Notes: generated from the sequence alone by a model not told the origin. Shown: positions 15,246 to 36,644, numbered from the stretch's first letter. The stretch: DNA of 49,386 nucleotides from Erysipelotrichaceae bacterium (GCA_963609805.1 CAVDLN010000003.1:1-49386), one strand, 5' to 3'. Numbers and translations are program-made.

Positions 15246-15257
15246 TGTCGCCTTCGG

Positions 15258-15301: not shown

Positions 15302-15378
<77 letters not shown>

Positions 15379-15391
15379 ATGCTACTCCGTT

Positions 15392-15552: not shown

Positions 15553-15581
15553 TTGCTTTTTGCGGAGATGTATGCTATAAT
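15553..15581 (+). promoter_or_regulatory. Sigma-A-like promoter for secG
   Basis: TTGCTT, 17-nt spacer, TATAAT, with an A-tract upstream. Confidence 0.55.
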
Positions 15582-15644
15582 ATCGTATAGTCGTGCACAT
15601 TGCGTGCAGCTGTGCAGGAAAAAGGTAGAAAGTGGGTCAGTATC

Positions 15645-15896: not shown

Positions 15897-16109
15897 AAAA
15901 GCAGTTTGCTTCCCTGAGGGCCGCAAAAGGCGATCCTGAAAACAGGAACAGAACGACAGATGTGGAAAAGGGTTGATGCGCGGTTTGCTCTTTGTATACC
16001 GCCCTGCGTCCTTTGAGGAAGGCAGGCGGGAGGGCACGGCATCGACCCTTTTCTCTGTATGCTTTAAAAGTTAAGAGTTAAGCTGTGAGGGGAGGGGTGC
16101 AGCGAGAAA

Positions 16110-17306
16110 ATGGAAAATAATCGGAAATCGAAAACAGGAAGCGTCGGATACGGACGGCATGTGTCCGGCGCGTCGGACTTTCACAGGGCGGCGCACCGCA
16201 CGGACAACGCATATGCGGGCAGCGCAGCACAAAGGCGAGGACGGATGTCCGTACCGACATACGCCGTTGTGATTGCACTGGCAGCGGCGATGCTCCTGCT
16301 GATGACAGGTGTATTTGTGGCCGGCCGGGAGGTCATTTTCGTGGAACGCGAGCAGGACGCTCCCTCCGGGAACAATATTCCCGAGCAGCCTGCCGAAACC
16401 GGCGATTCTATTGCCACGCCGGGCAGTCATCCGTTTGCGGACGGCCCGACGGGGGATGTGACCTTCCCGTATGCCGATGACAGCCGGATTATAGACAAGA
16501 GCAGCATATTGTCCGCGCGTGCCGTTGTGGTGGATCTGTCCTCGGGAGAGGTCATTGCCTCCCGGCTGTCCAACGAAAGAATGTACCCCGCATCGCTGAC
16601 AAAGGTCATGACGCTGATTGTGGCGGTCGAAAATCTGCCGGAGTCCGTCAGCCTGTCCTACAAGGTGACCGTCAGCAGTGAGGTCTACAACGCCATGTAT
16701 CTGGCCGGTGCATCCGGCATGGGGCTTGAGGTGGGCGAACAGCTGACGGTGGAGGCACTGCTGTATATGACCGTTCTCCAGTCGGATGGGATTGCCGCCA
16801 GCGAGCTGGCACGCTACATCGCCGGGGACGAGGAATCCTTTGTCCTGCTGATGAACCGGAAGGCGTCCGCAATGGGATTGGAAAACACGCACTTTTCCAA
16901 TCCGACAGGACTGCAGGACGAGGCGAATTATTCGACCTGCCGCGATATGGCAGCGATCCTGTCCTACGCCATGCAGATGTCGCTTTGCCGCAAGGTGTTG
17001 ACGGCGGCTTCCTACAACGCGTCCTGCACAGCGACGGCGGGGAAGAACGCGGGAAGCAGCTTTACTTACTATGTCACCAACAAATTTCTGTCGCTTCTGT
17101 CGGAGACAAGCGGCAGCAAGCCGGATTCGCTGACCATAACGGCAGGGAAGACGGGGTACGCCGGCAGCAATTCCGGGTACTGTCTCGCAAGCTATGCGGT
17201 CGGCGCGAACGGGCACGCGTACATATGCGTAACCTCCGAGGCGGCCGGGAATTATGTAGCCTGCGTCCGGGATCACGTGGCACTGTACAATGCCTATGCC
17301 GAATAG
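16110..17306 (+). CDS. D-alanyl-D-alanine carboxypeptidase (peptidase S11) family protein
   Basis: N-terminal membrane anchor and SxxK motif in YPASLTKVMT. Confidence 0.8.
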   Translation: MENNRKSKTGSVGYGRHVSGASDFHRAAHRTDNAYAGSAAQRRGRMSVPTYAVVIALAAAMLLLMTGVFVAGREVIFVEREQDAPSGNNIPEQPAETGDSIATPGSHPFADGPTGDVTFPYADDSRIIDKSSILSARAVVVDLSSGEVIASRLSNERMYPASLTKVMTLIVAVENLPESVSLSYKVTVSSEVYNAMYLAGASGMGLEVGEQLTVEALLYMTVLQSDGIAASELARYIAGDEESFVLLMNRKASAMGLENTHFSNPTGLQDEANYSTCRDMAAILSYAMQMSLCRKVLTAASYNASCTATAGKNAGSSFTYYVTNKFLSLLSETSGSKPDSLTITAGKTGYAGSNSGYCLASYAVGANGHAYICVTSEAAGNYVACVRDHVALYNAYAE

Positions 17307-17361: not shown

Positions 17362-19455
17362 TTACTCCTCGTCGGAGTAAACCACGGTATCCTCCGGAAT
17401 CTGCTCGGGCACAGCCTCCTCGGCCTCCCGTGCCTCTTCCAGCAGTGCGCGGATGGAGAGCGCAACCTTCTGCCTCTCGGAGTCGATGTCCAGAATCTTG
17501 GCATCCACAACCTGACCGATTTCCAGCACGTCGGCGGGCTTGCCGATGCGGTGGTCCGCAATCTCGGAAATGTGGATAAGTCCGTCTACACCGTCTACGA
17601 TTTCGGCAAATGCGCCGAAGGGCATCAGGCTCACGATCTTGACGGGAGCCACATCGCCGATTGCGTAGGTGTGCGTGAAGATGTACCAGGGGTTTGTTGC
17701 CTCGGTCTTGTAGCCGAGGGAGATACGCTTCTTCTCCGCATTGAAGCTCTTGACGAACACGGTGATTTCGTCACCGATGGAGACAACATCGGCAGGGCTC
17801 TTGATATGCTTCCAGGACAGCTCGGAGGAGTGAACCATACCGTCCACGCCGCCCAGATCCACGAACGCGCCGTAGCTGGTCATGCTCTTGACCACGCCCT
17901 GATATACCTTGCCTTCCTCGATGTTCTCCCAGAAAGCCTTCTCGCGCGCGTTGCGCTGCTCCTGCAGAACCTTGCGGATGGAACCCTTTGCCTTCTTGTT
18001 TTCCTTGATCTCGATGATCTTCATGGAAACGGTCTGACCCACCAGCGTGTTCAGATCGCCGTCACGCGGCACACCGGAATGTGCGGCGGGAATGAAAACC
18101 TGATTGGAGTTGACAAGAGCAACAACACCGCCCTTGTTAACCAGAATGACCTTGCCTTCGATATTCTCCTGCGTCTCGTAGGCTTCCTCAATCTTCTTCC
18201 AGTTCTTGTCGGAGTCAACGCGCTTTTTGGAAAGTGTAGCGAAGCCGTCGACATCGCTGACACGGATTACGAAAGCCTCTACCTCATCTCCGATTTTAAA
18301 CATCTGATCCAGCTTCGCCGCAGGATCATCCGTGATCTGGTCCAGCTTGATTACGCCGGTCACTTTGGTTCCCAGGTCGAGCTGAATCTCGCCGGGACTG
18401 ACAGCGGTTACAATCCCTACCACGGTATCTCCTGTCTTTATGGTTTTGAGAGCTGATTCTTCCAGCAGCTCGGCGAAGTTCTCGTTCTGTGCCTGTTCGC
18501 TCATGTTGTTTGCAACCTCCTCAATGATATCGCGGGGGGTGGAAGCCCCTGCCACGACGCCCACTTTGCAGCGGGTGCCCGCCTTCCGACGGGATAACGG
18601 AATCTTGTTTTTCAGCTCATCGGCCCGCTCGATCCACACGGTGTCAGCACAAATGTTTTTGCATATCGAAAAAAGTTTGGCAGAGTTCGAACTGTCTCTG
18701 CCTCCAATCACGATTATGAGATCACATTCGCGTGCGAGAGCGGCGGCTTCCTGCTGCCTCGATTCCGTCACACTGCATATTGTATCAAAAATGAGCGAAT
18801 TTGTAAAGAGGTTTTTGAGAAATTTTTTCGATAATTCCCATTCTCCGAGGTTATGCGTGGTCTGTGCGACCATAACCGGCGTCATACCCGCCCACCGCTT
18901 CCGGTTGTCCGCGTCGGTCAGCAGCGCTTCCAATTCCGCCGCCGAGGAGAACACATGCTTTTCCCCTTCAAACCGGCTGAGAAAACCGATCACCTCCGGG
19001 TGGTTTGCGGATCCGAGCACCAGCAGAAACCGGTCATCCTGTCCGCGGGTTTCCCGGGCTGCCCGGCAGAGAGCGGATTGCTCCGCGCAGACGCGGTGAA
19101 TTTTCTTGACAAAGGAGCAGGTGCAGTCCGCATAGGTAAAGTACGGGTTTCCCGCGGCACAGGCACGCAGCAGATTTTCCGTTTCCGCCGTCATGCCGTG
19201 GGCGCGGACAAACACACGGACAGGCGCTCCCTCCCGTGCCTCGCCGCACAGGCGCGGGATGTCACCGGTTTCGATTACCTCCACGCCGCATCCGCGCAGG
19301 CGCGCGGTATAGGTTTCGTTGTGAATCAGCCGCCCGAGCGTGAAAATGCGCTCCCCCGGCACATGCGCGGCGATTTCCTTCTCGACCGCCTCGGTTGCAC
19401 GGGCAACGCCGAAGCAGAAACCCGCGCCCTTGGCAACAACAACCTCCGTGCTCAC
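17362..19455 (-). CDS. ispH: Bifunctional 4-hydroxy-3-methylbut-2-enyl diphosphate reductase (IspH) fused to ribosomal protein S1 repeats
   Basis: N-terminal half is IspH/LytB-like (GFCFGVARA...). The C-terminal half has four S1 repeats (for example GKVYQGVVKSMTSYGAFVDLG). This fusion is well known in Clostridia. GTG start with a GTGA overlap onto plsC. Confidence 0.9.
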   Translation of the reverse strand: MSTEVVVAKGAGFCFGVARATEAVEKEIAAHVPGERIFTLGRLIHNETYTARLRGCGVEVIETGDIPRLCGEAREGAPVRVFVRAHGMTAETENLLRACAAGNPYFTYADCTCSFVKKIHRVCAEQSALCRAARETRGQDDRFLLVLGSANHPEVIGFLSRFEGEKHVFSSAAELEALLTDADNRKRWAGMTPVMVAQTTHNLGEWELSKKFLKNLFTNSLIFDTICSVTESRQQEAAALARECDLIIVIGGRDSSNSAKLFSICKNICADTVWIERADELKNKIPLSRRKAGTRCKVGVVAGASTPRDIIEEVANNMSEQAQNENFAELLEESALKTIKTGDTVVGIVTAVSPGEIQLDLGTKVTGVIKLDQITDDPAAKLDQMFKIGDEVEAFVIRVSDVDGFATLSKKRVDSDKNWKKIEEAYETQENIEGKVILVNKGGVVALVNSNQVFIPAAHSGVPRDGDLNTLVGQTVSMKIIEIKENKKAKGSIRKVLQEQRNAREKAFWENIEEGKVYQGVVKSMTSYGAFVDLGGVDGMVHSSELSWKHIKSPADVVSIGDEITVFVKSFNAEKKRISLGYKTEATNPWYIFTHTYAIGDVAPVKIVSLMPFGAFAEIVDGVDGLIHISEIADHRIGKPADVLEIGQVVDAKILDIDSERQKVALSIRALLEEAREAEEAVPEQIPEDTVVYSDEE

Positions 19456-20976: not shown

Positions 20977-23229
20977 TCAGGGCAGAATGGTCACATCGGC
21001 GTAAATTGCGTAGTGGTCAGACGGCAGAATGGTCTTGCTCTTCTTTTTCGTCGGGTATTCGGTGGTAACAATATCGTATTTCGAGCAGTAGGCACTGTCG
21101 GAACGGATAAAGATATGATCCAGTATGGTGGCACTGGGATTCTTGGCGAACTTGTGGAAGGTTCCTCTCTCGGCAGGTGCCGTGACGGCGGCCGTATAGC
21201 GCGCGTCCACACAGCTCTCCATGTACACATTATACGGTGCGGAATTGGGAGCGCAGTTCATATCGCCGACAATCACGTAAGGCATATCCGGGAACAGCTT
21301 GTTCAGCTGCTCAATCAGGACAGCGGCCTGCTTTCTGCGGAGAACTGCTCCCGTTGCCGTATCGCAGGCGTTGTACGCAAGGTGCGTGGAGCAGAACACA
21401 AATTCCGTGCCGGTTTCCTTGTCGCGGAACAGGGCGTACACAGCTTTGCGCGAATAGAAGCGGGATTCTCCGGGATGCTGCTCCATGGCTTCCTCCGCCT
21501 CCGGGAACAGCGAGCCCTGCACATCGGGTGTCGGGGACAGCCAGCGCACCTCGCTGCGCACCAGCTCCAGCCTCTCCTTCCGGTAGGCGATATAAATGCC
21601 CTCCTCGCCGGTTCCGGAGACCTCGTCCGAGCCGATTACACCGTATACTTCCGTGAATTTCTTCTTGGCAGTCATGTATTTGTACTGTACCAGACGGCAC
21701 TCGGACAGTCCGCACACATCCGGCAGCAGATCCAGCAGCATCTCGATGCTCGCATCCATCCGTTCCGTGTACGTCAGGGAGCCGTACAGTTCGGTGGTGC
21801 GCTCGGTCGAGGTTCCGGAGACCAGCACGTTGAAAGACATGGCGCGGATATCCAGCGCACTCTTTCCCAGCGCGGCGCATGCCTCCAGCATGGCTGCATC
21901 CTCGGAGTCGGCGTACTTTTTGACGACTTTTGCCGCCGTGCGCGCTATGCTGACACGCTGCGGCTGCGTCATGTGCGTATACACCTGCCCGCCGATGGTA
22001 TAGCGGACATAGGCACGGCACATATAAGCCTGCGACGCCGCCTCGCCGAGCAGCTGGGCACGGTAGGTCGATCCGGTTTCATCGGAGGATACCTTCTCCG
22101 CCGGGATATCTGTTACGCCCGCCGTGGATGCGTCGAAGGTGTCACCGCAGTCCTCCTCCGGCATCAGCAGAACGCCGCAGGAAACCTCCGAGGCGGCTGC
22201 CGTCAGTTCGTTGTCCGTAAGGCTCGTATAAATGCGAAGACCGGGAGTCCCGCTGTAGCGCGCGGATGTTCCCTCTATAGCAAGCGGCCGGGTCAGCTCG
22301 GCGGCCTCATCGGGGGTCATGCTGTCCGTGACGCGCTTGCTGACCGTGACATCCGTAATCTGGACTGCCCATTGGGTGGACTGTTCCGATTTATACAGAA
22401 GCATGATCGGAGCGTCCTTCCACATGGCGTAGGAAGTGGAAATCAGCTGGTCATCGATGTAGCTCTCGATCTTTGCGGTGTAGGTCTTGCCGCCCTGCTC
22501 GTATTCGCCCTTTGTGCAGCGCACGGAGGTATACAGCGAGTCGTTGGCGTATCCCGCGTCGCTTATCACGTGCTTGGTTTCAGGATCGGCGCATTCGTAG
22601 TCGGTCTGCTGTCCGCCGTAAACGGTATAGGCGGCGCCGGAGTTCAGCATGGCACCGGTGTAGCCGGCAAACGCATAGTTGTCGTACCCGCCGAAGTAGG
22701 TAACGCCGTCCTGCTCCGTGCCGCCGTCATAGAACAGGGCAAGGCCCAGAAGGCCGCCGGCAGGCTTGTGGACGCGCGCAATATACGACACGGTGAACTC
22801 GTCCGTATCGGAAAGACTGCCCGCGGGGAACAGCGTAATCAGTCCCTGCACGCTTTTCCCCGTTGCCGCGATAATGCTCAGCGTGGAGGCGGAGCGCGTT
22901 TCGGAGGAGTGGTTGCCCAAAAGAGTCAGCGTCTTGGAGGCGACTTTGTACTCCTTTATTGTAGCGGCGCCGTTCGGCGTAATGGCGGCGTCGTATACGC
23001 TGTTCAGCGGCAGAAGACCGTCCTCACGGGGAGAGGCGTTGCCTGCCTGCAGGGTTTCCGCCGTTTCCCCGCTGAAGGTTTCCTCATATACGGTTTCCAT
23101 ATGGCTTACGTCCAGGGTGGCGCCGCCGTCGGCACGTACGGCGACGGGCAGCGAGGGCAGAAGCATCAGCACCGCCAGCAGAACGCACAGCGCGGGAGCC
23201 GCTTTTCTTCTCATTTTCAGGTGTGTCAT
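20977..23229 (-). CDS. Secreted protein with a large N-terminal region of unknown function and a C-terminal endonuclease/exonuclease/phosphatase (EEP) domain
   Basis: Signal peptide MRRKAAPALCVLLAVLMLLPSLPVAVRA. The last ~300 aa carry EEP-type blocks (MSFNVL..., ...GDMNC..., LPSDHYAIYADV). Confidence 0.7.
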   Translation of the reverse strand: MTHLKMRRKAAPALCVLLAVLMLLPSLPVAVRADGGATLDVSHMETVYEETFSGETAETLQAGNASPREDGLLPLNSVYDAAITPNGAATIKEYKVASKTLTLLGNHSSETRSASTLSIIAATGKSVQGLITLFPAGSLSDTDEFTVSYIARVHKPAGGLLGLALFYDGGTEQDGVTYFGGYDNYAFAGYTGAMLNSGAAYTVYGGQQTDYECADPETKHVISDAGYANDSLYTSVRCTKGEYEQGGKTYTAKIESYIDDQLISTSYAMWKDAPIMLLYKSEQSTQWAVQITDVTVSKRVTDSMTPDEAAELTRPLAIEGTSARYSGTPGLRIYTSLTDNELTAAASEVSCGVLLMPEEDCGDTFDASTAGVTDIPAEKVSSDETGSTYRAQLLGEAASQAYMCRAYVRYTIGGQVYTHMTQPQRVSIARTAAKVVKKYADSEDAAMLEACAALGKSALDIRAMSFNVLVSGTSTERTTELYGSLTYTERMDASIEMLLDLLPDVCGLSECRLVQYKYMTAKKKFTEVYGVIGSDEVSGTGEEGIYIAYRKERLELVRSEVRWLSPTPDVQGSLFPEAEEAMEQHPGESRFYSRKAVYALFRDKETGTEFVFCSTHLAYNACDTATGAVLRRKQAAVLIEQLNKLFPDMPYVIVGDMNCAPNSAPYNVYMESCVDARYTAAVTAPAERGTFHKFAKNPSATILDHIFIRSDSAYCSKYDIVTTEYPTKKKSKTILPSDHYAIYADVTILP

Positions 23230-23669: not shown

Positions 23670-23698
23670 TTGACAAGGCGGCTGCCGTATGTTATAAT
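23670..23698 (+). promoter_or_regulatory. Consensus sigma-A promoter for tRNA-Ala
   Basis: TTGACA, 17-nt spacer, TATAAT. Confidence 0.7.
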
Positions 23699-23732: not shown

Positions 23733-23808
<76 letters not shown>

Positions 23809-23964: not shown

Positions 23965-24537
23965 TCAGAACGGCAGAACGCCGAGGTGCTCCAGCAGGAT
24001 TTTCAGTCCGATAAGAATCAGAATGGCACCACCCGCTATGACGGCACGGTTCTTGTATTTCAGGCCGAACACATTGCCGATTTTCAGACCGACGCCGGAC
24101 AGAAGGAAGGTGATGACGCCGATGATTCCGACAGACCACCCGATGCCGACTGTCGGGGGAGTCAGCGCGAAGGTAACGCCGACCGCCAGCGCGTCAATGC
24201 TGGTCGCCACGGCCAGCAGCAGCATGGTTTTGAAAGAGAAGGAGTCATTGACCTTCTCGCTCTCGCCGGAGATGCCCTCCCGGAGCATGTTTCCGCCGAT
24301 CAGGGCCAGCAGGATAAAGGCGATCCAGTGGTCGAATCTGGTGATGTAGGAGGCGAAGGTCGAGCCGAGCAGCCAGCCCAGCGTCGGCATCAGCGCCTGA
24401 AACCCGCCGAACCACGCACCGATAATCAAATAGTGGCGGGGACGCAGCTGCTGTGTGGACAGCCCCTTGCAGACGGAAACGGCGAAAGCGTCCATGGACA
24501 GTCCCACGGCAAGCAGGAGAAGTTCGATAAGGCTCAT
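23965..24537 (-). CDS. mntP: Manganese efflux pump MntP
   Basis: Six TM segments with two internal repeats (LSMDAFAVS and TSIDALAVG). Confidence 0.9.
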   Translation of the reverse strand: MSLIELLLLAVGLSMDAFAVSVCKGLSTQQLRPRHYLIIGAWFGGFQALMPTLGWLLGSTFASYITRFDHWIAFILLALIGGNMLREGISGESEKVNDSFSFKTMLLLAVATSIDALAVGVTFALTPPTVGIGWSVGIIGVITFLLSGVGLKIGNVFGLKYKNRAVIAGGAILILIGLKILLEHLGVLPF

Positions 24538-24733: not shown

Positions 24734-24762
24734 ATTATAACACACGATAAACGGGATGTCAA
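24734..24762 (-). promoter_or_regulatory. Consensus sigma-A promoter for the riboswitch-mntP transcript
   Basis: Minus strand TTGACA, 17-nt spacer, TATAAT. Confidence 0.7.
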
Positions 24763-24794: not shown

Positions 24795-25805
24795 TCAAAA
24801 GTAGAATTCCGTTTTCACGTCGCGGGAGAACAGCGACTGCAGCTCGGAGGACGGATCCGCCGCCTCGTACAGAATGCGGTACACGGCTCGGCAGATGGGC
24901 AGATCCACACCGTAGCGGCTGCCGAGCAGGCACATGGCGCGCACGGTGGCATAGCCTTCGGCAAGCTCGGCATACGGCTTGTGCGTGACCCATGCCTCCC
25001 CGAAGGCCCGGTTGTGGCTGAAGGGGGAGAAAACAGTTGCCTCGTAGTCCCCGAGGTGGCACAGTCCGTAGGCGGACAGTTCATTTCCGCCCATCGCGCG
25101 GATCAGGCGGGCGATCTCCCGTGTTCCGCGCGACATCAGTGCACCCTTGAGCGTTGTCAGATGCATGCCGTCCAGCATGCCGGCGGCTATGCCGATTACG
25201 TTTTTGGAGGCGGCTCCGATTTCGCTGCCCAGCAGATCTTCCCCGTAGTAGAACCGGATCAGATTGCCCGAGAAGGCATCTACCAGCCGCTGTTTCACGC
25301 TGTCGTCCTTGCTGTCTATGACCATGCAGTTGGGTATGCCCGCGTAGAATTCCTGCACATGGCCGGGACCGACCCACACCGCTATGCGGCAGGACGGGTC
25401 GAGTGCCGCTTCCGCTATTTCGGACAGCCGCAGCCCCGTGTCCGCCTCAACGCCCTTCATGCACAGCACCACAATGCGGTTGCGCAGGGAAAGCGGACGC
25501 AGCTCCTCCGTCAGCCCGCGCAGCCCCTGTGCGCCTATGGATATGATGATAACCTCCCGTCCGTCCAGCGCCCCGGCAAGGTCGCAGGACAGCTGCACGC
25601 TGTCCGGCAGGGTCAGAAGGTCGTTCCTCCGCTCCCGCAGGAAGCGCTGCATGTGCGCGGAATCCGGCCGTCCGTACAGCGTTACGTCCAGCCCGCGGCA
25701 GGACGACAGGTACCATGCTATGAGGGATCCCCATCTTCCGCAGCCGATTACCGCGACGCGCCCGATCCCCCGGATTTCTTTTTCCAGACTTTGATTTTTC
25801 GACAT
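24795..25805 (-). CDS. gpsA: NAD(P)H-dependent glycerol-3-phosphate dehydrogenase
   Basis: VAVIGCGRWGS dinucleotide-binding motif with GpsA-like length and blocks. The start is at ATG 25805. Confidence 0.9.
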   Translation of the reverse strand: MSKNQSLEKEIRGIGRVAVIGCGRWGSLIAWYLSSCRGLDVTLYGRPDSAHMQRFLRERRNDLLTLPDSVQLSCDLAGALDGREVIIISIGAQGLRGLTEELRPLSLRNRIVVLCMKGVEADTGLRLSEIAEAALDPSCRIAVWVGPGHVQEFYAGIPNCMVIDSKDDSVKQRLVDAFSGNLIRFYYGEDLLGSEIGAASKNVIGIAAGMLDGMHLTTLKGALMSRGTREIARLIRAMGGNELSAYGLCHLGDYEATVFSPFSHNRAFGEAWVTHKPYAELAEGYATVRAMCLLGSRYGVDLPICRAVYRILYEAADPSSELQSLFSRDVKTEFYF

Positions 25806-25824: not shown

Positions 25825-28800
25825 TTATTCCTGCTTCCGCAGCCGCTTTTCCATGGCTGCCACACCCGCTTCCGCCTGACGGCAGCCCAGTCTCAGCGCG
25901 CGCCGATAGCAGGTGACGGCACTGCGCGGGTCGGGGGCATCCATGCCGATGCCGCGTTCATAGCATTCGGCAAGCAGGTATGCCGCCTGCCCATGGTATC
26001 TGGATGCGCGCAGCAGCCAGGATACGCCTTCCCGTTCGTTTGCCGGACAGCCGACGCCGTGTACGAGACACCAGCCGAGACTGTACTGCGCCCACAGCGC
26101 ACCCCGGCAGAGCGGTTCACCCCGCCCCGGGGTAAAGGAGGCTGCCTGCCTGTAGCAGAGAACAGCCGATGCGCGGTCGGCAGGCATGTGCAGCCCGCCG
26201 AACAGGCATTCTCCCAGATAGTACATGGCATCCGCGTCCATGCGCGGCGTAACGGCGGCGCGGACATAGGCCGTATCCTCCGTCTCCGCACCCGCCGCGG
26301 CTGCTGCCGCTGTCATATCCTCCGCATACCGGAAGGGCTCCGGTGCGGGGGACAGAACGGCGTAGTATTCCCGCATCCATGCGGCGGGATCGCTTTTTGA
26401 AAAACTTTTTCTGTGCTCCGCAAGGGCGCGCGCCAGTCTGACGCCTTCCTCTTTCCTGTTCCTGCCGCCTGCCTCGCGCAGTCCCTGCCATATCTCCTCT
26501 ATGGAGCGGCGGCTGCTTTCCGCTTTGTCCGTTTCCCGCGCCAGCATCCGCGCAAAGTCTGCCCGCGCGGCAGGCTGCCCCGCCAGCACCGCACGGCACA
26601 GCCAGACAAACGGGCGGTCGTCGGAACTTTCCCCGACGGTTTCCGGATTCGAGGTTTCCAGCAGCGCCAGACGGTACATCGCCTCGCCGCGTATCCTGTC
26701 GTGCGGATTTTCTCCCGACGGGGTTTTTTCCGTCGGAAGCAGGGTTTCCGTGTCGGCATACGGCTTTGCGTAAACGGCCAGACGGTACAGATCCGCCGCG
26801 CGGCGGCACCTGTCCGTATTCCGCACGGCCGCCGTGTCCGTCGTTGCGTCTGCATACAGGGCCTTTTCCGTGCCCGTAAGGGTCAGATCTCCCAGCCACA
26901 GGCAGACGATGCCGTCATAACGATTGCCGAAACGGCGGCGTACCGCTCTCAGCAGCGTTTCGGCTGCGGATGGATTTTTCACCGTACCGATTCCCCGGTA
27001 TGCACATTCCGCCATCAGAATAAACGCCTCGGCGCTGCCGCCTCCGACGGCTGCCGACAGATACGAAATGCCCCTCCGATTCCATGCATCCGCGCCCGAC
27101 TCGCCGCCGCACGCGTCGGCCCGACGGAAACAGTCCTGCGCCAGCCGCAGCTGTGCCTCGGCGCGGGCCGCGGATTCTCCGGTCTCGGATGTCGGCGGAC
27201 AATGCAGCGCACGGCGGTACCAGACAACGGCGGCATCCGCCGCGTCTGCTGCGTGCGGGGCTTCTTTTCCTGCCGCACACAGCCGACCAAGCGTAAGGCA
27301 TGCCTTACTGCTGCCGAGACGGGCGGCGCGCGTCAGAAGCTCCGATGCCGACTCTCCCGTATGCGGGACCCCGTCCGTGCCGCTGCTTCCGATGCCTGTC
27401 AGCCGGCAGAACGCCAGCCTGCAGAGTGCCTCGGCCGTTGCCTCCGCCACGGTGAGCGCCGCGGTGGGGAGATCCGGCGGGGCGGCGGAGCTGTCGGATT
27501 CCGTGCCGATTCCGTCCGATTCTTCCGGTTTGATTTCGCTGTGGCGCGGTGCCCCCGGGGCATTTTCCGCCTGACCGCTCTCCGTTTCCGCTGCCCTATC
27601 GGCTGCAGCCGCCGCGGCAGGCTCGTGTGGACCGGCCTTTTCGGGAAGGATATCCGTCATACCGCCGTACAGCTCCTCCGCCGTACCCGATGAGGGGACG
27701 GATTCCCATGGCGCGCTGATATCCGCATCCGCGGCGGATGCCGCAACGGCGGAAAAGTAGCGGACGGCCTCCTCCGGCTTCCGGACAGCGCCCCTGCCCT
27801 CCAGCAGGCACAGCCCGGTTTCCAAAGCTCCCTGCACGCAGTCCGCCGCGGATGCGGCAAACCATGAAAAGGCCCGCCTGCTGTCCCGGCTGACGCCTCT
27901 CCCGTCCCGACAGCAGAGTCCGATGGCATAGGATGCCTCCGACACGCCGCCCTGCGCCGCCTGCTCGTACAGCTGTGCCGCCCGCGCGTACTGCGTCGGG
28001 ACGGAGAGCCCGCGGTCATAGCAGAGTCCCAGACGGTACATGGCATAGGGAAGGCCGCCCTGCGCCGCCTGCCCGTACAGGGCGAACGCCCGCGCGATGT
28101 CCCGGCGGATGCCGGTTCCGTGCTCAAAGCACAGACCCAGCCGGCAGGCCGCCTCGGGTATACCTGCCTGCGCTGCCTGCCGATAGCATTCCACGGCACT
28201 GCTCAGGTTCTGCCTGACGCCGATGCCCCGCTCATAGCAGCTTCCGAGGTTGTTCTGCGCCGGGGCGTACTCCTTTTCTGCCGCCTCGGCATAGAGGTGT
28301 GCCGCTTCGGCGGCATCCTGCCTTGTATACAGGCCCTTCTCACAGCATACGCCGAGGCGGAACTGCGCCTCGGGATTCCCGAGCTGTGCGGCAATGCGGT
28401 AGAGCCGCACGGCTTCCTTTCCGTCCCGCAGCACGCCCAGCCCCAGACGGCAGCATTCCGCCAGACGCAGCACGGCATCACCGTACCCGCGCTCCGCTGC
28501 AAGGCGGTACCAGTACAGCGCGTGCAGCGGCAGAGGCCGGCAGCCCGCGGCGGGAAATCCGCTCTCCAGCATACGGCCCAGCTCATACGCGGCGGCAGAC
28601 GGATCCCAATCGATCCGGCCGCCTGCTCTGCGTTCGGTCGGGATATCCGTCAGAACGGCATTCAGATGCCTGCTGTCGGAAATTCCGATCCGGCGATAGC
28701 GGCATTTCGCCATGCAGTTCCGAAGACGGCGGCGCGAATCGTCATCCGTTTCGCCGCATGCCGTGAGGCCGTCGCCATTCGGACGGCTCCCGCCGGAGGG

Positions 28801-29940
28801 ACGCAGAATTTCCGCAAAATTGTCCTCCCGCATTTTCCGCATGGAAACCATACGGCGCAGGCGTCCGTCGCGGGGAGGCGTGCCCTTTGCACGGGCGGGA
28901 CGAGGCTCAACCGGACGGATAACCTCTCCCGGCTTCTGCGGGGGAGGCGCGCCGATTCCCGTATCCGGAGGGCGGTAGCCGGTCAGATCGGCGCAGGCGG
29001 CGTACAGATCGAAGGCGGCGCCGTACCATTCCGAGGAAGTTGACGCGGCGTCCCGGCGGAGCAGCCCCAGCTGGCAGCGGGCGGGAAGAGACCCCTTGTT
29101 TGCCGCGCGGGTAAAGGCTTCCTCCGCAGCCTGCGGATCACGCATCATGCCGATGCCTTCCATAGCGCAGCGGCCGATTTGATAGACTCCGCGGATGTCG
29201 CCCGCGTCGGCGGCGCGGCGGAACAGCGCCAGAGCTTCGGCGGGGTCACGCCGGACGGCACCGCCGGAAATTTTTCGGTCGGCCAGCCGCAGCATGGAAT
29301 CCGGCAGACCCAGCGCGGTGCCCTGCTCCAGCCAGAAAATTTCCTCGCTTTCCAGCCGCGGAACGATTTCGCCTGTGCGGTAGGCATCCGCCAGAGAACC
29401 GACCGCCTGTACGGCGGCGGCATACTCCTCCCGACGCTCGAATTTTTCCCCGCCGCACACACGGTGTGCCAGGACGGCCTGCCTTATCAGCTGTCCGTAT
29501 GCGTTGTCTACGCAGCGTACGGCGGAAAAAGCCCCCGTGCAGCGGCACAGCCGGTTGAGATACAGCCGATGGATGTAGTATGCCGTGCGGGTGCGGTCAG
29601 GCGCGCCTTCCCCCGGAAAAGCAATAAGTTCTGCAGTGCTTCCGCGATCGGAGCAGAAGCGGTCATCCAGTGCGTTTTCCGCCAGACTGACGCACAGAAC
29701 CCGATGCCCACGCCGCAGGAGCAACCGTATGTCCGCCGCGCAGACTCCGCCCGAGGCGGCAGCCGGGGAGGTCAGCACGACGACGGCCTCGGCGGAAAGC
29801 AGGAGCTTCTCTCTCTCCTGCCGCGGAACGGATTCGTCCGGCGCTTCGTATCGGAACCCGTATCGGGTCAACTCACTCAGAAAACACCGCACCGTCTCGG
29901 CATCGGCATCGGCATGGCTGACGCAGATATAAGGACGCAT
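25825..29940 (-). CDS. Giant cytoplasmic protein with a TIR-like N-terminal domain followed by multiple blocks of Sel1-like repeats
   Basis: The ATG at 29940 follows GGAGG. The N-terminus is MRPYICVSHADADAETVRCFLSELTRYGFRYEA...AVVVLTSPAAASGGVCAADIR. The body has many A..LY..AA..G...A...LG.C/Y repeats. There is no signal peptide or TM segment. The stop is 19 nt before the gpsA start. Confidence 0.7.
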   Translation of the reverse strand: MRPYICVSHADADAETVRCFLSELTRYGFRYEAPDESVPRQEREKLLLSAEAVVVLTSPAAASGGVCAADIRLLLRRGHRVLCVSLAENALDDRFCSDRGSTAELIAFPGEGAPDRTRTAYYIHRLYLNRLCRCTGAFSAVRCVDNAYGQLIRQAVLAHRVCGGEKFERREEYAAAVQAVGSLADAYRTGEIVPRLESEEIFWLEQGTALGLPDSMLRLADRKISGGAVRRDPAEALALFRRAADAGDIRGVYQIGRCAMEGIGMMRDPQAAEEAFTRAANKGSLPARCQLGLLRRDAASTSSEWYGAAFDLYAACADLTGYRPPDTGIGAPPPQKPGEVIRPVEPRPARAKGTPPRDGRLRRMVSMRKMREDNFAEILRPSGGSRPNGDGLTACGETDDDSRRRLRNCMAKCRYRRIGISDSRHLNAVLTDIPTERRAGGRIDWDPSAAAYELGRMLESGFPAAGCRPLPLHALYWYRLAAERGYGDAVLRLAECCRLGLGVLRDGKEAVRLYRIAAQLGNPEAQFRLGVCCEKGLYTRQDAAEAAHLYAEAAEKEYAPAQNNLGSCYERGIGVRQNLSSAVECYRQAAQAGIPEAACRLGLCFEHGTGIRRDIARAFALYGQAAQGGLPYAMYRLGLCYDRGLSVPTQYARAAQLYEQAAQGGVSEASYAIGLCCRDGRGVSRDSRRAFSWFAASAADCVQGALETGLCLLEGRGAVRKPEEAVRYFSAVAASAADADISAPWESVPSSGTAEELYGGMTDILPEKAGPHEPAAAAAADRAAETESGQAENAPGAPRHSEIKPEESDGIGTESDSSAAPPDLPTAALTVAEATAEALCRLAFCRLTGIGSSGTDGVPHTGESASELLTRAARLGSSKACLTLGRLCAAGKEAPHAADAADAAVVWYRRALHCPPTSETGESAARAEAQLRLAQDCFRRADACGGESGADAWNRRGISYLSAAVGGGSAEAFILMAECAYRGIGTVKNPSAAETLLRAVRRRFGNRYDGIVCLWLGDLTLTGTEKALYADATTDTAAVRNTDRCRRAADLYRLAVYAKPYADTETLLPTEKTPSGENPHDRIRGEAMYRLALLETSNPETVGESSDDRPFVWLCRAVLAGQPAARADFARMLARETDKAESSRRSIEEIWQGLREAGGRNRKEEGVRLARALAEHRKSFSKSDPAAWMREYYAVLSPAPEPFRYAEDMTAAAAAAGAETEDTAYVRAAVTPRMDADAMYYLGECLFGGLHMPADRASAVLCYRQAASFTPGRGEPLCRGALWAQYSLGWCLVHGVGCPANEREGVSWLLRASRYHGQAAYLLAECYERGIGMDAPDPRSAVTCYRRALRLGCRQAEAGVAAMEKRLRKQE

Positions 29941-30166
29941 GGGACTCCTCCTTCCGGGGCGGATGTCGGGATCGGGAAATAAAAAGCCGCCCGTCACCGA
30001 AAATTTACCGAAAAGGTCTTTTCAAATCCGCCGATTTGTATTATAATAGGGGCAACAGAAAATATACTCATATTATACTCCCGGGATGGCCGGAATTCAA
30101 GTACATTTTGTATATTCTGCGCCGCGCGTCGGATTTTCCGTGCGGCCGGGCGAAAGGACGGATGGT

Positions 30167-30766
30167 ATGAAGAATAAATACGCACTGACGATTGCGGACA
30201 TCCAGCTGGATGTTCTGTCGGAGGCACCGCGGGAAGAGGTGGACAGGATTTCCGGCATCGTGGACCGCAAGATGCGCGAGATCTACCTGCACAGCCGCAG
30301 CTGCACCCGCAATGAGGCGGCACTGCTGTGCGCACTGGAGTTCTGCGCCGAGAGGCTGGAAAATCAGAGCCGCCTTTCCGAGCTGGAGCAGCTTGCCGAA
30401 AAGTACGACGAGGTGCTGAAGGTGTTCCGTGACAAGAACCATGAGCTGAACGATGAGGTAAGCAAGCTGCGCAGCGAGAACGAGCTGCTCAGATCCCTGC
30501 TGACGGATAAGGACCGCGACGGCGGCGCAAAGGACGAGGCTGCGCCCGTACAGGCTCCCGCCGCCAATCCGGTATCCGCCAAGGAATTCCTGCGTCAGGT
30601 CGCGGACGCGCAGTACACGGACGGCGGGGACAGGAAAGAGGAAGAGGAAAAGGAAAAGAAGAAGCCGTCGGCACAGCCCGAAGCGGCCGCAGCCGGCGAG
30701 ACCGCACCCCGCGAGCGGCGCAGGACGGGCGGCATGTTCGATCTGCTCTCCTTTGACGATGTCTGA
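30167..30766 (+). CDS. zapA: Cell division protein ZapA with a long low-complexity tail
   Basis: MKNKYALTIADIQLDVLSEAPREEVDRISGIVDRKMREI gives a ZapA-like N-terminus and coiled coil. It sits upstream of a U32 peptidase, as in many Clostridia. Confidence 0.75.
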   Translation: MKNKYALTIADIQLDVLSEAPREEVDRISGIVDRKMREIYLHSRSCTRNEAALLCALEFCAERLENQSRLSELEQLAEKYDEVLKVFRDKNHELNDEVSKLRSENELLRSLLTDKDRDGGAKDEAAPVQAPAANPVSAKEFLRQVADAQYTDGGDRKEEEEKEKKKPSAQPEAAAAGETAPRERRRTGGMFDLLSFDDV

Positions 30767-32996
30767 TTCGGCGGGGAAGCACCTGCCGGAGCTGCTTGCT
30801 CCGGCAGGATCTCCGAAGGCACTTGAGGCGGCATTCTGCGCAGGGGCGGATGCCGTATATCTGGGCGGCACGGCGTTTAACGCTCGCATGAGCGCACGCA
30901 ACTTTGACAGTACCGAGCTGCGGGAAGCGGCGGCGTATGCCCACAGGCAGGGCGGACGGGTGTATCTCACGCTCAACACACTGGTCTATGACCGTGAGAT
31001 GACCGATGCGGTGCGGGCCGCGTACGATGCCGCCGAGGCAGGTGCGGACGGGCTGATTATCGCGGATTTGGGCGCGGCTGCCTGTATCCGCCGTGCGCTG
31101 CCGGAACTTCCCCTGCACGCCAGCACACAGCTTTCGGGACACAATGCTGCCATGGGACGGGCACTTGCCTCCCATGGCTTTTCCCGCTTTGTCATAGCGC
31201 GGGAAACACGCCTGTGCGATCTTGCATCGGCTGTGGCGGGCAGTCCGCTGGAGGTTGAGGTGTTTGTGCACGGCGCTCTGTGCGTATGCCATTCCGGGCA
31301 ATGCCTGTTTTCCTCCATGGTCGGGGGAAGATCCGGAAACCGGGGGGAGTGCGCCCAGCCCTGCCGCCTGCCGTATCGGGATGTGCGCGGGCGGGAGTGC
31401 TACCCGCTTTCCCTGAAGGATCTGACGCTTGCCGCCCACATTCCGGAGCTTGTCGGGGCGGGCGCGGCATCGCTTAAAATAGAGGGACGCATGAAAAGCC
31501 CGGCCTATGTGGGGGGTGTTACCGGTATATTCCGACGCCTGCTGGACGAGAACCGGGCTGCCGACCGTGAGGAGATCGGCTTCCTTGCCGAGCTGTTCTC
31601 ACGCGGCGGATTCACGGACGGGTATTTTACCGGGCACATCGGCCACGGTATGACAGGCGTGCGGTCCGAGGCGGACAAGGAACGCTCGGCGGCCGCCGAG
31701 AAAAAGGCAGCCGCCGCTCTGAACCCGGCGCGCATTCCGGGACGGCTTCCCGTCAGCGCAAAACTGGTTCTGCGCGAGGGACAGCCTGCCGCTCTGACGC
31801 TGACGGCTCCGCTGTTCCGACAGGGGAAGGATGCGGTTTCCGTGACGGCGGACGGCGACATCCCCGCGAAAACCGGCAATTCGGATACCCTGACGGCGGA
31901 GGGAGCCGAACGGCAGCTGTCCCGCACGGGCGGAACACCCTACCGCCTGACGGAGGGGGGCTGCGAGGTCGATTCCCCGGAGGGACTGACACTCACGCCC
32001 GCGCAGATCAATGCGCTGCGGCGCACGGCACTGGACGCACTGACCGACGCGCGCCTTGCCGGTATGCCCGATGCGGCGGCGGGGAGTCTGCCGCAGGAGG
32101 CGCTGCCGCGGATTCTGCCTTTGATTGCAAAAGAGTCGGGGGACTCCGCAGCGGCAGCCGTGAGGCCGGTTTCCTATACGGCCAATTTTGAAAGCCGGGA
32201 GCAGATTACGGCTGAGGCGGAGAGATTTTTCTCTGTCTGCTTCCTTCCGCTTGAGAAACGGAGAAATTCCGGGTCGGCTTTCGGTGCTGCCCTGCCGCCG
32301 GTCATACCGGACCGGGAGTCCGCATGCGTGCGGAAGGCGTTGGTTGATGCCCTGCGGAGCGGCGTGAGAGATCTGCAGATCGGAAATCCGGGGCACTGGG
32401 AGCTGGTGCGGGATGCGCTGGCGGAGGCGGGATTGCCGGAAACCGAAGATGTCCGCCTGTACGGCGGTCTGCGCCTGAATGTGACAAACCTTGCGGCGGC
32501 GCGGGAACAGGAAAAAATATGCAGTGAAATTACGGGACTTCCGCTGCGGGGCGTGATTCTGTCGCCGGAGCTGACTCTGCCGCGGCTGCGGGATCTGAGT
32601 CGGAACATGCCGTCGGCGTCCGCGATTGTGTACGGACGGATTCCGCTCATGCTGCTGGAAAAGTGCGTTATTCGCGAGCTGTATCCGGGTTCCGCCGATC
32701 CGCTCCTGCCGGACGGGTGCGCGGGCGCTGCCTGTTCCGCCTGCCGCCGGGGGGAGGCGGTTCTGCGTGATCGCACCGGGGCACAGTTTCCCGTGCTCCG
32801 CTGTGCGGGGCACCGCAATCAGGTGTTCAACAGCCTGCCGGTATCCATGACGGACCGGGAGGATGTGCTCCTGCACAGCGGCATCCTGCGGCGGCATTTC
32901 CTATTCACCGTGGAATCCCCCGCGGAGGTGGACGGCGTGATTGCCGCCATGCAGGAGGGAGGACCGGTCGGGAAGGAAGTACGACGCGTGAGATAG
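30759..32996 (+). CDS. Peptidase U32 family protein (long form)
   Basis: U32 signature EVFVHGALCVCHSGQCLFS. The start is ATG 30759 or TTG 30753, overlapping the zapA stop. Confidence 0.85.
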   Translation: MSDSAGKHLPELLAPAGSPKALEAAFCAGADAVYLGGTAFNARMSARNFDSTELREAAAYAHRQGGRVYLTLNTLVYDREMTDAVRAAYDAAEAGADGLIIADLGAAACIRRALPELPLHASTQLSGHNAAMGRALASHGFSRFVIARETRLCDLASAVAGSPLEVEVFVHGALCVCHSGQCLFSSMVGGRSGNRGECAQPCRLPYRDVRGRECYPLSLKDLTLAAHIPELVGAGAASLKIEGRMKSPAYVGGVTGIFRRLLDENRAADREEIGFLAELFSRGGFTDGYFTGHIGHGMTGVRSEADKERSAAAEKKAAAALNPARIPGRLPVSAKLVLREGQPAALTLTAPLFRQGKDAVSVTADGDIPAKTGNSDTLTAEGAERQLSRTGGTPYRLTEGGCEVDSPEGLTLTPAQINALRRTALDALTDARLAGMPDAAAGSLPQEALPRILPLIAKESGDSAAAAVRPVSYTANFESREQITAEAERFFSVCFLPLEKRRNSGSAFGAALPPVIPDRESACVRKALVDALRSGVRDLQIGNPGHWELVRDALAEAGLPETEDVRLYGGLRLNVTNLAAAREQEKICSEITGLPLRGVILSPELTLPRLRDLSRNMPSASAIVYGRIPLMLLEKCVIRELYPGSADPLLPDGCAGAACSACRRGEAVLRDRTGAQFPVLRCAGHRNQVFNSLPVSMTDREDVLLHSGILRRHFLFTVESPAEVDGVIAAMQEGGPVGKEVRRVR

Positions 32997-33049: not shown

Positions 33050-34189
33050 ATGAAAATTCTGCTCACAGGCGGCGGAACGGCCGGACACGTCAATCCGGCG
33101 CTCGCGATTGCCGACGCAATGAGGGAGCGGGACCCGGAGACGCAGTGTTTGTTTGCCGCATCGGATATGCCGCGCGACAAGGCGAATGATCTGATCCCGC
33201 GTGCGGGGTATGAGCTGCGCCATGTCCATATCCGGGGCATGAGGAGGCCTGTCGTGCACCCCGCCAATTTCGCTCTGCCTTTTATCATGTTGCGCTCACG
33301 CGCACAGGCGCGGAGGCTGATACGGGAATTTTCTCCCGATCTGATTGTCGGGACGGGCGGATTTGCCTGCTGGCCGGTTGTGGCGGAGGGGGCGGCAGCG
33401 GGTATTCCGACTGCCGTTCACGAGTCCAACGCGCTGCCCGGAAAGGCAATCCTGCAGTTGCGGCACAGGGTGGATCGGATATTTGTCAATTTTCCCGAAA
33501 CGGCCGACAGGCTCGGACTGTCGGAGGGGGAAAAGGACAAGGTAATCCGCGTCGGAAACCCCGTCATGACGGGGTTTCGCGCAGTGTCCCGCGAGGAGGC
33601 ACGGCGGCAGCTGGGCATAGCGGAGGACACGGTATCCGTGCTGGCTTTCGGCGGCAGTCTCGGGGCGAGCCGTCTCAACGATGCGCTGACGGATCTGGCG
33701 GACGTGATTGCGCGGGAATTCCCGCATGTCCGGCTGACATTTGCCGCGGGGAAACGGGATTACGAGCGCACGGCGGAAAGACTGAAGGCCGGTGCCGCCG
33801 CAGGCTGTCCCCGCATCCGCCTGCTGGACTATATTTACGATATGCCGGTACGGATGGCGGCGGCCGATCTGGTCGTGTCCCGCGCGGGTGCCATGACGGT
33901 ATCCGAGCTCTCCCTGCTCGGCAGGGCGGCGGTGCTGGTTCCGTCCCCGTATGTGGCGGACAACCATCAGTTCCGCAATGCGCAGGCATTGGTGCGGGCG
34001 GGAGCAGGCGTGTGCGTCGCCGAGGACGGACTGCCGGACGGGGCGTTGACGCAGGCCGTTCTGCCGCTGCTTGAGCGGCCGTCGGAGCGCGATGCCATGG
34101 GTCGGCGTCTGCAGGCCGAATTCGCCTGCCCGGACGCCAACGAAAAAATCTGCGGGGAACTGCTGCGTCTTTTGCGGAAGCATCGGTGA
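33050..34189 (+). CDS. murG: UDP-N-acetylglucosamine--N-acetylmuramyl-(pentapeptide) pyrophosphoryl-undecaprenol GlcNAc transferase
   Basis: MKILLTGGGTAGHVNPALAIA N-terminus. Position is next to ftsQ and ftsZ. Confidence 0.9.
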   Translation: MKILLTGGGTAGHVNPALAIADAMRERDPETQCLFAASDMPRDKANDLIPRAGYELRHVHIRGMRRPVVHPANFALPFIMLRSRAQARRLIREFSPDLIVGTGGFACWPVVAEGAAAGIPTAVHESNALPGKAILQLRHRVDRIFVNFPETADRLGLSEGEKDKVIRVGNPVMTGFRAVSREEARRQLGIAEDTVSVLAFGGSLGASRLNDALTDLADVIAREFPHVRLTFAAGKRDYERTAERLKAGAAAGCPRIRLLDYIYDMPVRMAAADLVVSRAGAMTVSELSLLGRAAVLVPSPYVADNHQFRNAQALVRAGAGVCVAEDGLPDGALTQAVLPLLERPSERDAMGRRLQAEFACPDANEKICGELLRLLRKHR

Positions 34190-35450: not shown

Positions 35451-36644
35451 ATGACTTTCGAACACGACGATACTAACTCGTCAGGCGTAAAAATCAAGGT
35501 GATCGGTGTCGGCGGAGGCGGAAACAACGCCGTAAACCGCATGATCAACTCCAACATCAAGGGTGTGGAATTCGTCGCCATCAATACCGACGCACAGGTA
35601 CTGAAAAAGTCCGATGCCACCATCAAGCTTCCCATCGGTCAGAAGCTGACCAACGGGTTCGGAGCGGGCGCAAATCCGCAGATCGGCGCGCGCGCGGCCG
35701 AGGAGTCCATTGACGAGATCAAGAAGATTCTGGAAGATGCCGATATGGTGTTTGTCACTGCCGGAATGGGCGGCGGCACGGGAACCGGAGCGGCTCCCGT
35801 TGTGGCACGGCTTGCACGGGAGGCCGGCGCGCTGACAGTCGGTATCGTCACGAAGCCGTTCAAATTCGAGGGCAAGCGCCGCGTGTCGCAGGCGGAGGCA
35901 GGCATCAAGGAATTGAGCCAGTACGTGGATTCGCTGGTGGTTATCCCCAACGACTGTCTCTGCGAAATGCCCGATACGCCCCGCATCACCATGCAGAATG
36001 CCTTTGAGATCGCGGACGGTGTCCTGTCGCAGGGCACCCGCAGCATTTCCGACCTCATCAATGTACCCAGCTTCATCAACCTTGACTTCGCGGATGTATC
36101 CTCCGTTATGAAGGATGCCGGCTACGCGCATATGGGTGTCGGTGTCGGCACCGGCAAGGACAAGGCAGAGAATGCGGCGCGCAGCGCCATTACAAGCCCG
36201 CTGCTGGAGACCTCCATTACGGGCGCTCACGGTGTGCTGATCAGCGTGGTGGCTCCTCCGGATGTCAGCCTGGCGGATGTGCAGATCGCATCCACCATGA
36301 TTTCGGAGCAGGCAGCCCCCGACGCAAACGTCATCTGGGGTGTCAACTTCGACGAGGAGATGGATGATACCATGCGTGTCACCATCATTGCCACGGGCTT
36401 TGACAAGAGGGACGGCACGGCAGCTCCCGCTCCCGCAGCCGAGCCTGCGTCCGATCCCGCACCCGCAGCAGAGACCGATTCCGTCGTCGGACAGAAGAAG
36501 GAGTCCGCTCCCGACGGGAATACCGCGCGGCAGGATACGGCGGCGGCCGGCAAGAAGACCGACGGTGCGGCAGGCAGGACCGCTGTGAGCAACAAGCTGT
36601 CCCAACTGGGCGACGAGCTGAACATGCTGAAGGGAATCCGGTAA
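35451..36644 (+). CDS. ftsZ: Cell division GTPase FtsZ
   Basis: [13 protein letters not shown] and [13 protein letters not shown] tubulin-signature motifs. Confidence 0.95.

Follow-up and report, generated by a model that had tools for sequence, protein, structure and literature searches.

What does a TIR-type domain do when it stands at the head of a giant repeat protein encoded amid housekeeping genes? Bacterial TIR domains have mostly been discussed as immune NADases or signal generators residing in mobile defence islands, and the question is raised by a single gene on the minus strand of a 49,386-nucleotide stretch of DNA from an Erysipelotrichaceae bacterium (GCA_963609805.1 CAVDLN010000003.1:1-49386), the whole of which is called the window below. 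An earlier reading made from that sequence alone (the original prediction) had proposed that this gene codes for a cytoplasmic protein of 1371 residues with a TIR-like start and Sel1-like repeats, apparently co-transcribed with gpsA. The analysis presented here shows a lineage-restricted, core-locus, cytoplasmic protein of a gut Oscillospiraceae clade, in which a TIR head, both diverged and constrained and carrying Asp for Glu at the catalytic position, is followed by four Sel1 solenoids on flexible linkers. In this family, purifying selection has kept a TIR-superfamily domain at a fixed position among housekeeping genes, next to those of cell division, with Asp uniformly in place of Glu.

A diverged TIR domain below the Pfam threshold

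The sole non-repeat Pfam match of note in the protein is to TIR_2 (PF13676), and it falls below the gathering cut-off of 28 bits for both the full protein (17.7 bits) and residues 1–150 (22.5 bits). Among 35 orthologue N-domains, TIR_2 matches 26 (E<1; best E 1.6e-6) and ThsB_TIR weakly matches 12, with no other family recurring. A profile of the N-domain family, run against 1.84 billion representative proteins, recovered 122 matches at E<=1e-3. About 45 of the matching clusters are the family itself, whose long members (1195–1500 aa) nearly all carry the domain at residue 1, whereas the outgroup matches, with E-values from 1e-13 to 1e-3, are verified TIR_2 proteins (Pfam E<=1e-5) in 10/10 cases of a first set and then in 69/70. 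When the family alignment was compared by hhalign with the TIR_2 domains of the outgroup, aligned independently by MAFFT, the two matched over 99 columns with a probability of 99.4% (E 7e-22), a figure that is partly circular because the TIR_2 set was picked from matches to the same family profile.

The AlphaFold2 (AF2) model of residues 1–150 (pLDDT 89.7, pTM 0.85) displays the order βA-αA-(βB)-αB-βC-αC-βD-αD-βE-αE, i.e., the strand and helix order of a TIR domain with its five-stranded parallel sheet, with βB only a short bridge (βA 5–8, αA 11–26, αB 40–49, βC 52–57, αC 59–76, βD 81–85, αD 90–96, βE 103–107, αE 116–128). TIR structures form the largest single group among the Foldseek matches of the N-domain (TM 0.5–0.62): the group includes Hydra TRR-2 (TMq 0.62, TMt 0.72, rmsd 3.4), the cryptic TIR of BCAP, SARM1, SPARTA, RRS1, TLR1, SpbK, TIR-STING, a B. 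cereus TIR, BtpA (4lzp), EcThsB and MyD88. The TIR-related enzymes DNPH1 and MilB are also found among the matches. Taken alone, this modelled fold would be only flavodoxin-like, closest to TIR. When the PDB was searched by sequence, with either the first 222 aa or the family profile as the query, no TIR was returned, the marginal matches being Rossmann-like, receiver and peroxidase proteins (E>0.03); this null carries no information rather than constituting a contradiction.

Since the orthologue Pfam matches, the profile search and the structure agree, the assignment of residues 1–140 to a diverged TIR-superfamily domain missed by the Pfam threshold is firm. The TIR-like N-terminus of the original prediction is thereby upheld by the very profile and structure checks that might have returned a non-TIR fold. 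That the N-domain has instead a generic flavodoxin-like or receiver-like fold, unrelated to TIR, is scarcely credible and largely refuted: the sub-threshold Pfam score, the failure of the family profile to retrieve a solved TIR by sequence and the PurE, flavodoxin and receiver folds among the weak Foldseek matches might be read that way, but the profile matches reaching E 1e-13 are nearly all verified TIR_2 proteins, and both the hhalign result and the residue-by-residue alignment of the TIR motif positions speak for TIR.

An invariant aspartate at the catalytic position

TIR NADases carry their catalytic Glu at the start of helix αC, where the protein has Asp70. For a comparison of active sites, 117 canonical TIR_2 domains were aligned to the family profile. 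The D70 column is dominated by Glu (94/117), with Asp in 14 (12%), Gln in 4 and Thr in 2, and hhalign pairs the 'vAaDIR' of the family with the canonical 'v~~Ei~~A', placing D opposite E. These two observations identify D70 as the catalytic-Glu position, in agreement with what had been surmised from the motif CAADIR. Both D70 and R72, two residues further on, are invariant in 35/35 aligned N-domains of the family.

The rest of the site is a mixture of retention and change. The canonical positions S8, Y/H9, G28 and S58 are kept. F6 (Phe/Tyr in 107/112 canonical TIR_2 domains) has become Cys; W32 (Trp in 70/116) and S64 (Ser in 104/118) are variable in the family; and D13 is lost in one of its sub-clades ('ALSRREE'). 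Conversely, R72, C83, R94, H124 and C143 are invariants specific to the family when set against canonical TIR_2. A group of these together with C96, namely C83, C96, H124, C143 and R94 (29512-29692 (-), residues 83–143), is invariant or near-invariant, with no canonical TIR_2 counterpart. A metal or redox site was considered for these residues. In flavodoxin-like folds, αD and αE lie on opposite faces; hence, a single Zn site built from C83, C96, H124 and C143 is doubtful.

Published work takes Glu to define the TIR-like NADases and predicts that forms lacking it are inactive (bioRxiv 10.64898/2026.09.21.753143). A literature search on Glu-to-Asp exchanges in TIR NADases yielded no report of an Asp-type active TIR and no Asp-variant data. 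As judged from the alignments, the D70/R72 site might be a remodelled functional pocket or might have a non-catalytic ligand-binding or interface role, and the data fit both.

Constraint on the head across the family

From 5.8 billion proteins, ~60 full-length relatives of 1241–1458 aa were retrieved, with 31–95% identity, from metagenome-assembled genomes (MAGs) of Clostridia, Ruminococcaceae or Oscillospiraceae; the family, which is common in gut metagenomes, amounts to ~45 clusters at 50% identity. Where named, these relatives are annotated solely as 'SEL1-like/TPR repeat protein', and a literature search found no description of this family. The N-domain is present at the start of all ~60 full-length orthologues, and this survey of domain order turned up no homologue from which it was missing. 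In a 35-sequence alignment of residues 1–150, the invariant positions are G28, F29, T57, A61, D70, R72, C83, R94, H124, L131 and C143.

The modules differ markedly in their conservation. The TIR-like head has a mean identity to the query of 47% and a length of 138–150 aa across the family, comparable to the Sel1 arrays A (43%), B (51%) and D (52%), with array C lower at 34%. Thus, the head and arrays A, B and D hold to 43–52% at fixed length, whereas the linkers stand at 21–28% and range from 19 to 203 aa. Because of its 47% identity and fixed length as against the 21–28% of the linkers, the head is, by these sequence measures, to be counted among the most constrained modules of the protein and not as a decaying appendage.

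Four Sel1 arrays on flexible linkers

The remainder of the protein belongs to the Sel1 family by Pfam (PF08238: 265.4 bits against a cut-off of 30.7 bits, in 11 stretches). Six perfect 36-residue units at residues 488–703 were used to seed a hidden Markov model (HMM), and mapping of repeats with it gives four arrays, the third of which is degenerate (Table 1). At least three blocks had been expected, separated by a basic Pro/Arg-rich linker and an acidic Ala/Glu/Ser linker; the composition of these two linkers stands, but the count of arrays is to be raised to four and a third linker, charged and helical, has to be added. The units of array B score 59–65 bits each against the HMM, which is evidence of regular spacing only because the HMM was built from those same units.

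An AF2 model of residues 831–1371 (541 aa; pLDDT 84.7, pTM 0.83) is wholly helical, and its Foldseek matches are only Sel1, TPR and alpha-helical repeat structures, with the Sel1 proteins 6ok3, 4bwr and 8sxq and SEL1L/Hrd3 at the top; the proteins matched include Sel1 proteins of O. formigenes, c5321 of E. coli, LceB, SEL1L/Hrd3, HcpC and LpnE. A hidden domain in this part of the protein was considered and is ruled out by the all-alpha model and the restriction of structural matches to Sel1/TPR. Likewise, no central P-loop NTPase was found: Pfam and NCBIfam give no NTPase match and the protein has no Walker A motif. A STAND NTPase concealed within linker 1 is ruled out on the same grounds, residues 321–445 being low-complexity Pro/Arg sequence of variable length. 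Within the otherwise variable linker 3, the motif W(M/L)xxYYxAxxPxPxPFxY (~26329-26382 (-), residues ~1187–1204) is strongly conserved and might serve for docking or capping.

Neither a signal peptide nor a membrane segment was found in the 1371 residues, the top 19-residue Kyte–Doolittle mean (1.49) lying inside a beta strand of the N-domain; the protein is therefore predicted to be cytoplasmic, as had been claimed.

A fixed housekeeping locus with a variable gpsA neighbour

Genomic context was compared in 14 loci, 12 from species-level genomes reached through two conserved N-domain peptides and 2 from divergent members reached by exact-protein look-up. The peptides were derived from a 7-sequence N-domain alignment that recovered only 12 species; hence, the taxonomic breadth is a lower bound. 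The large gene occupies the same core locus in 14/14, with 31–75% protein identity, which agrees with the earlier placement in a core neighbourhood rather than a defence island. The divergent pair of zapA and a U32 peptidase-family gene lies upstream in 13/13 loci with upstream sequence, and is thus a more constant neighbour than gpsA, which is downstream in 10/14 loci and absent there in 4/14. The divergence of the large protein (31–65% full-length identity) parallels that of the products of its neighbours (gpsA 67–89%, U32 53–74%, zapA 37–85% identity), and for this reason the gene looks as if it has descended vertically.

The relationship to gpsA merits separate treatment. In the window, exactly 19 nt (tttGGGAGattcggataac), with GGGAG within them, separate the TAA stop from the gpsA ATG at 25805, as had been stated, and a scan of the window sequence showed no terminator-like site between the two genes; judged from the sequence, co-transcription is likely here. 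In most gpsA-bearing loci the gap is 19–89 nt, but it is ~130–370 nt in three of them (L003, L005 and L008). Perfect GC-rich hairpins without a T-tract follow directly on the orthologue stop in L003 (~4820-4845), L005 (~6315-6345) and L007 (~9290-9312), the last being one of the loci without a downstream gpsA; an example is GGGGGCTTCTTGAAAGAAGCCCCC, and they may be terminators or repeat elements. Given the loss of gpsA in 4/14 loci, the wide gaps in three more and the hairpins after stops, co-transcription with gpsA is not a conserved feature of the family, so that the proposal of a shared transcript is plausible for this window and fails as a family-wide statement. The idea that the protein is functionally coupled to gpsA through NAD(P)H was given less weight, since those same four loci lack the adjacency.

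Individual loci show further rearrangements. In L013 an amino-acid-kinase gene (7040-7912) has been inserted, separating zapA from the large gene, and in L014 a Fur/ZnuA/ABC zinc-uptake cluster (13099-16199) takes the place of the downstream gpsA. In L002 (CP091718.1, a 1.78-Mb Oscillospiraceae MAG chromosome), the orthologue at 10001-13959 has a frame ending at codon 151 while tblastn similarity spans query residues 1–1371, which points either to a pseudogene created by a frameshift or to an error in a long-read assembly.

Relation to known TIR and Sel1 proteins

The closest kin outside the family are the bacterial TIR_2 proteins, which share with it a homologous N-domain, the same strand–helix order and the S-Y/H, G, S and acidic αC positions. 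Fusions of TIR with repeats are well known in conflict systems (PMC7159879), and the combination seen here is not without precedent: 4/70 of the nearest canonical TIR_2 proteins (P0155, P0163, P0166, P0169) also have Sel1 repeats, and TPR and WD40 fusions occur as well. Tandem TIRs, 2–5 per protein, are found in many of these relatives (P0119, P0120, P0133, P0134). One outgroup match of the profile, P0132 (701 aa), couples two TIR_2 domains to a Tubulin/FtsZ-family GTPase domain. The query differs from the TIR_2 proteins in its score below the Pfam cut-off, in having Asp for Glu with an invariant Arg two residues on, in the loss of F6, W32 and S64, in a length 3–4 times greater with four Sel1 arrays, and in a fixed core locus as against their variable loci.

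On the repeat side, a parallel might be struck with Sel1-like proteins such as SEL1L/Hrd3, HcpC, LpnE, LceB, E. coli c5321, AlgK, MotX and ExoR, which have the same 36-residue units and solenoid form (modelled, in the query) and act as adaptors or scaffolds, a role that might extend to the query. Most of them are secreted, periplasmic or ER-lumenal, and all are far shorter than the query, which is cytoplasmic, with four arrays and a TIR-like head. TIR_2 with Sel1 being already known, what sets the family apart is the sub-threshold TIR variant with its invariant Asp-x-Arg, the size and four-array layout, and the strict conservation of the housekeeping locus.

A scaffold, an enzyme or an immune sensor?

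We lean, at a little less than even confidence, towards a multivalent scaffold or adaptor. Its Sel1 arrays would bind partner proteins, and its TIR-like head would undergo regulated self-association or bind an NAD-derived or other nucleotide ligand, as opposed to bringing about bulk NAD+ destruction. The most likely place of action would be the cell-division and envelope machinery (zapA, murG, ftsZ), because the divergent zapA–U32 pairing is constant and murG and ftsZ lie within a few kb; this localization is by guilt of association only. YpsA, a protein of the SLOG superfamily (which is related to TIR) with a link to cell division, sets a precedent for the use of such a fold in division (PMC6459960; PMC7159879). 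This TIR/DRHyd/SLOG member lies beside a conserved cell-division gene, gpsB, in Firmicutes/Bacillus and has a non-immune role. The parallel is an analogy only and no homology is claimed: YpsA is a small, single-domain SLOG protein and not a TIR, and its neighbour is gpsB rather than zapA.

Several points weigh against a scaffold of this kind. The neighbours are conserved within one bacterial family, and the division link is weak because such conservation may stem from shared ancestry and not from function. Immune sensors, too, classically consist of a TIR domain followed by repeat arrays. Further, going by the alignments, an invariant acid alongside S8, Y/H9, G28 and S58 would equally be expected of a working enzyme, and Asp is present in 14/117 canonical TIR_2 domains as well. 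Finally, the Foldseek E-values behind the fold are weak (1e-3 to 3e-2), with PurE, flavodoxin and DNPH1 folds scoring alike.

The third of these points leads to the alternative that survives best, albeit as an unlikely one: the head could be an active N-glycosidase or NAD+-processing enzyme using Asp70 together with Arg72, and would make or consume an NAD-derived signal under Sel1 control, whether in a regulatory housekeeping function or to deplete NAD+ under certain conditions. In addition to the invariant acid at the catalytic position, the invariant R72 and the four retained positions, it is favoured by a head as well conserved as the best Sel1 arrays (47%, at fixed length), the 12% of canonical TIR_2 domains that also have Asp, and the position of gpsA, an NAD(P)H enzyme, downstream in 10/14 loci. 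However, Glu is taken as the defining residue of these NADases and Glu-less forms as inactive (see the preprint cited above), the literature search found no Asp-type active TIR, F6, W32 and S64 are lost along with D13 in part of the family, and a gene for a signal-sensing effector was not found nearby. A more specific version, in which the Asp-type head would be a working enzyme or a high-affinity sensor of NAD-derived nucleotides, fixed in the core genome of a bacterial clade and making the assembly of a giant Sel1 platform at the machinery of division or envelope synthesis depend on the redox or NAD state, is a long shot.

What hangs on the choice can be stated briefly. If the head is inactive, it would offer a clean bacterial case of TIR as a pure assembly or ligand-binding module; if active, the catalytic definition of TIR enzymes would be widened and a non-immune role indicated. 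An Asp-type housekeeping TIR, if true, would mean that bacteria put TIR chemistry to constitutive, non-immune use, with Asp doing the catalytic work of Glu. Unless the Asp-type head is active in a non-immune role, there is little here to surprise a TIR specialist, and the practical gain is modest, amounting to an improved annotation and a candidate for testing; no new class of system is added.

The protein might also be imagined as a single-gene anti-phage or abortive-infection sensor-effector, in which the arrays sense a phage protein, the TIR head oligomerises and the cell is killed or arrested; we regard this as distinctly unlikely. An N-terminal TIR effector with C-terminal repeats is the standard layout of immune receptors (PMC7159879), canonical TIR_2 proteins with Sel1, TPR and WD40 repeats are among the nearest relatives, and the linkers evolve fast. 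Yet, the immune possibility raised by the original prediction gains no contextual support. No family in PADLOC-DB reached E<=1, whether the full protein or residues 1–150 served as the query. No partner effector gene (ThsA SIR2/SLOG, Argonaute, STING etc.) or variable island was seen, the neighbours in the window being zapA, the U32 gene, gpsA and mntP, with the same core genes on either side in the 14 related loci. The gene keeps to one conserved locus in 14/14 with vertical-looking divergence, and its GC content is native (0.64–0.69, like that of neighbouring genes), with the nearest mobile element ~19 kb off. The defence TIRs of Thoeris (ThsB), SPARTA, TIR-STING, SpbK and CAP12 (Pycsar TIR) resemble the head at the level of the fold (Foldseek 8wcf, 8u72, 9lmq, 9phb; ThsB_TIR weakly in 12/35), from which it is set apart by the missing PADLOC match, ThsA-like or other partner, island and catalytic Glu. 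Similarly, STAND/NLR-type TIR-NTPase-repeat receptors (plant TNLs, bacterial Avs/bNACHT-like proteins, TeTIR-NACHT) have a TIR-type head and C-terminal superstructure-forming repeats, but the query has no central P-loop NTPase, the place of which is taken by disordered linkers, one basic and one acidic.

That the protein is aimed at the host by a gut commensal, mimicking eukaryotic TIR/Sel1 modules in the manner of TcpB/TcpC and the Legionella Sel1 effectors, is very improbable: although BtpA (4lzp) is among the N-domain fold matches, LpnE and LceB are among those of the Sel1 part, and the family derives from gut metagenomes, the resemblance to the secreted TIR virulence proteins (TcpB/BtpA, TcpC) is at the fold level only (BtpA), there is no signal peptide, no secretion-system genes lie nearby, the locus is a housekeeping one, and the 48 cysteines of the protein suit the cytoplasm of an anaerobe.

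The gene, its start site and its neighbours

The large gene is a single uninterrupted reading frame of 1371 codons, intact as had been reported, and its ribosome-binding site is good. Its true start is the ATG at 29940, because this codon has AGGAGG upstream with a 6-nt spacer and all orthologues begin at the equivalent Met (M-x-P-Y-I-C-V); the GTG at 29997, which would give the longest extension of the open reading frame, is ruled out on the same two grounds. The divergent arrangement with zapA was likewise correct, with an intergenic region of 226 bp between the two genes. Of the Rfam families, only tRNAs passed the gathering thresholds; neither a riboswitch nor a leader came up near the large gene.

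Table 1. Coordinates of the large gene, its modules and the neighbouring genes in the window
Feature	Residues	Coordinates	Strand	Basis or remark
Whole gene, TIR-like/Sel1-repeat protein	1–1371	25825..29940	-	stop TAA 25825-25827
N-terminal TIR-superfamily domain	1–140	29521..29940	-	AF2, Foldseek, Pfam, family profile, hhalign
Asp70 codon	70	29731..29733	-	TIR catalytic-Glu position; Arg72 next in D-I-R
Sel1 array A	~171–320	28981..29430	-	~4 repeats; Pfam and repeat HMM; length constant in family
Linker 1	321–445	28606..28980	-	Pro/Arg-rich, basic; 81–203 aa in family, 23% identity
Sel1 array B	446–735	27736..28605	-	eight repeats, six canonical 36-residue; Pfam Sel1 match independent
Linker 2	736–830	27451..27735	-	acidic, Ala/Glu/Ser/Pro-rich; 19–95 aa in relatives
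Array C	831–1130	26551..27450	-	degenerate Sel1/TPR-like helical repeats; AF2 all-alpha, Foldseek
Linker 3	1131–1230	26251..26550	-	charged, helical; carries W(M/L)xxYYxAxxPxPxPFxY
Sel1 array D	1231–1371	25828..26250	-	three repeats; repeat HMM and AF2 model
gpsA, NAD(P)H-dependent glycerol-3-phosphate dehydrogenase		24795..25805	-	NCBIfam 237 bits; downstream, same strand
Promoter-like site TTGAAT-17-TATAAT		30072..30100	-	consensus match only; ~130 nt 5' of start codon, oriented to large gene
zapA		30167..30766	+	divergent neighbour; PF05164 28.9 bits vs 23.8-bit cut-off; true start 30167
U32 peptidase-family gene		30753-32996		after zapA
murG		33050-34189		after U32 gene
ftsZ		35451-36644		beyond murG

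Other features of the window

The sole region of the window resembling a mobile element is positions 1-7000, ~19 kb from the large gene, where the GC content drops to 0.42–0.49 against 0.55–0.69 elsewhere. It codes for an S24/LexA-like repressor, an ImmA/IrrE M78 peptidase, two AAA_14+DUF4143 ATPases and a serine recombinase, ends close to a partial tRNA match (6922-6978), and has the look of a mobile element that integrated here, whole or as a remnant.

Two perfect 12/12 matches to sigma-70-type promoters with an extended -10 TG were observed. One, at 24734-24762 (-), is situated just past gpsA and ahead of an MntP-like gene (23965-24537, named from its sequence only), upstream of which Rfam detected no Mn riboswitch at its threshold; the other, at 23670-23698 (+), precedes a tRNA (23733-23805). 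Further along, 17362-19455 (-) is a single reading frame of 697 aa with LytB/IspH and S1 RNA-binding domains, i.e., a fusion of the ispH-rpsA type. The product of the gene at 20977-23229 (-) has 750 aa, carries a signal-like hydrophobic segment at its N-terminus and matches no Pfam family at E<=1e-5; the gene at the comparable position in L013 carries Exo_endo_phos.

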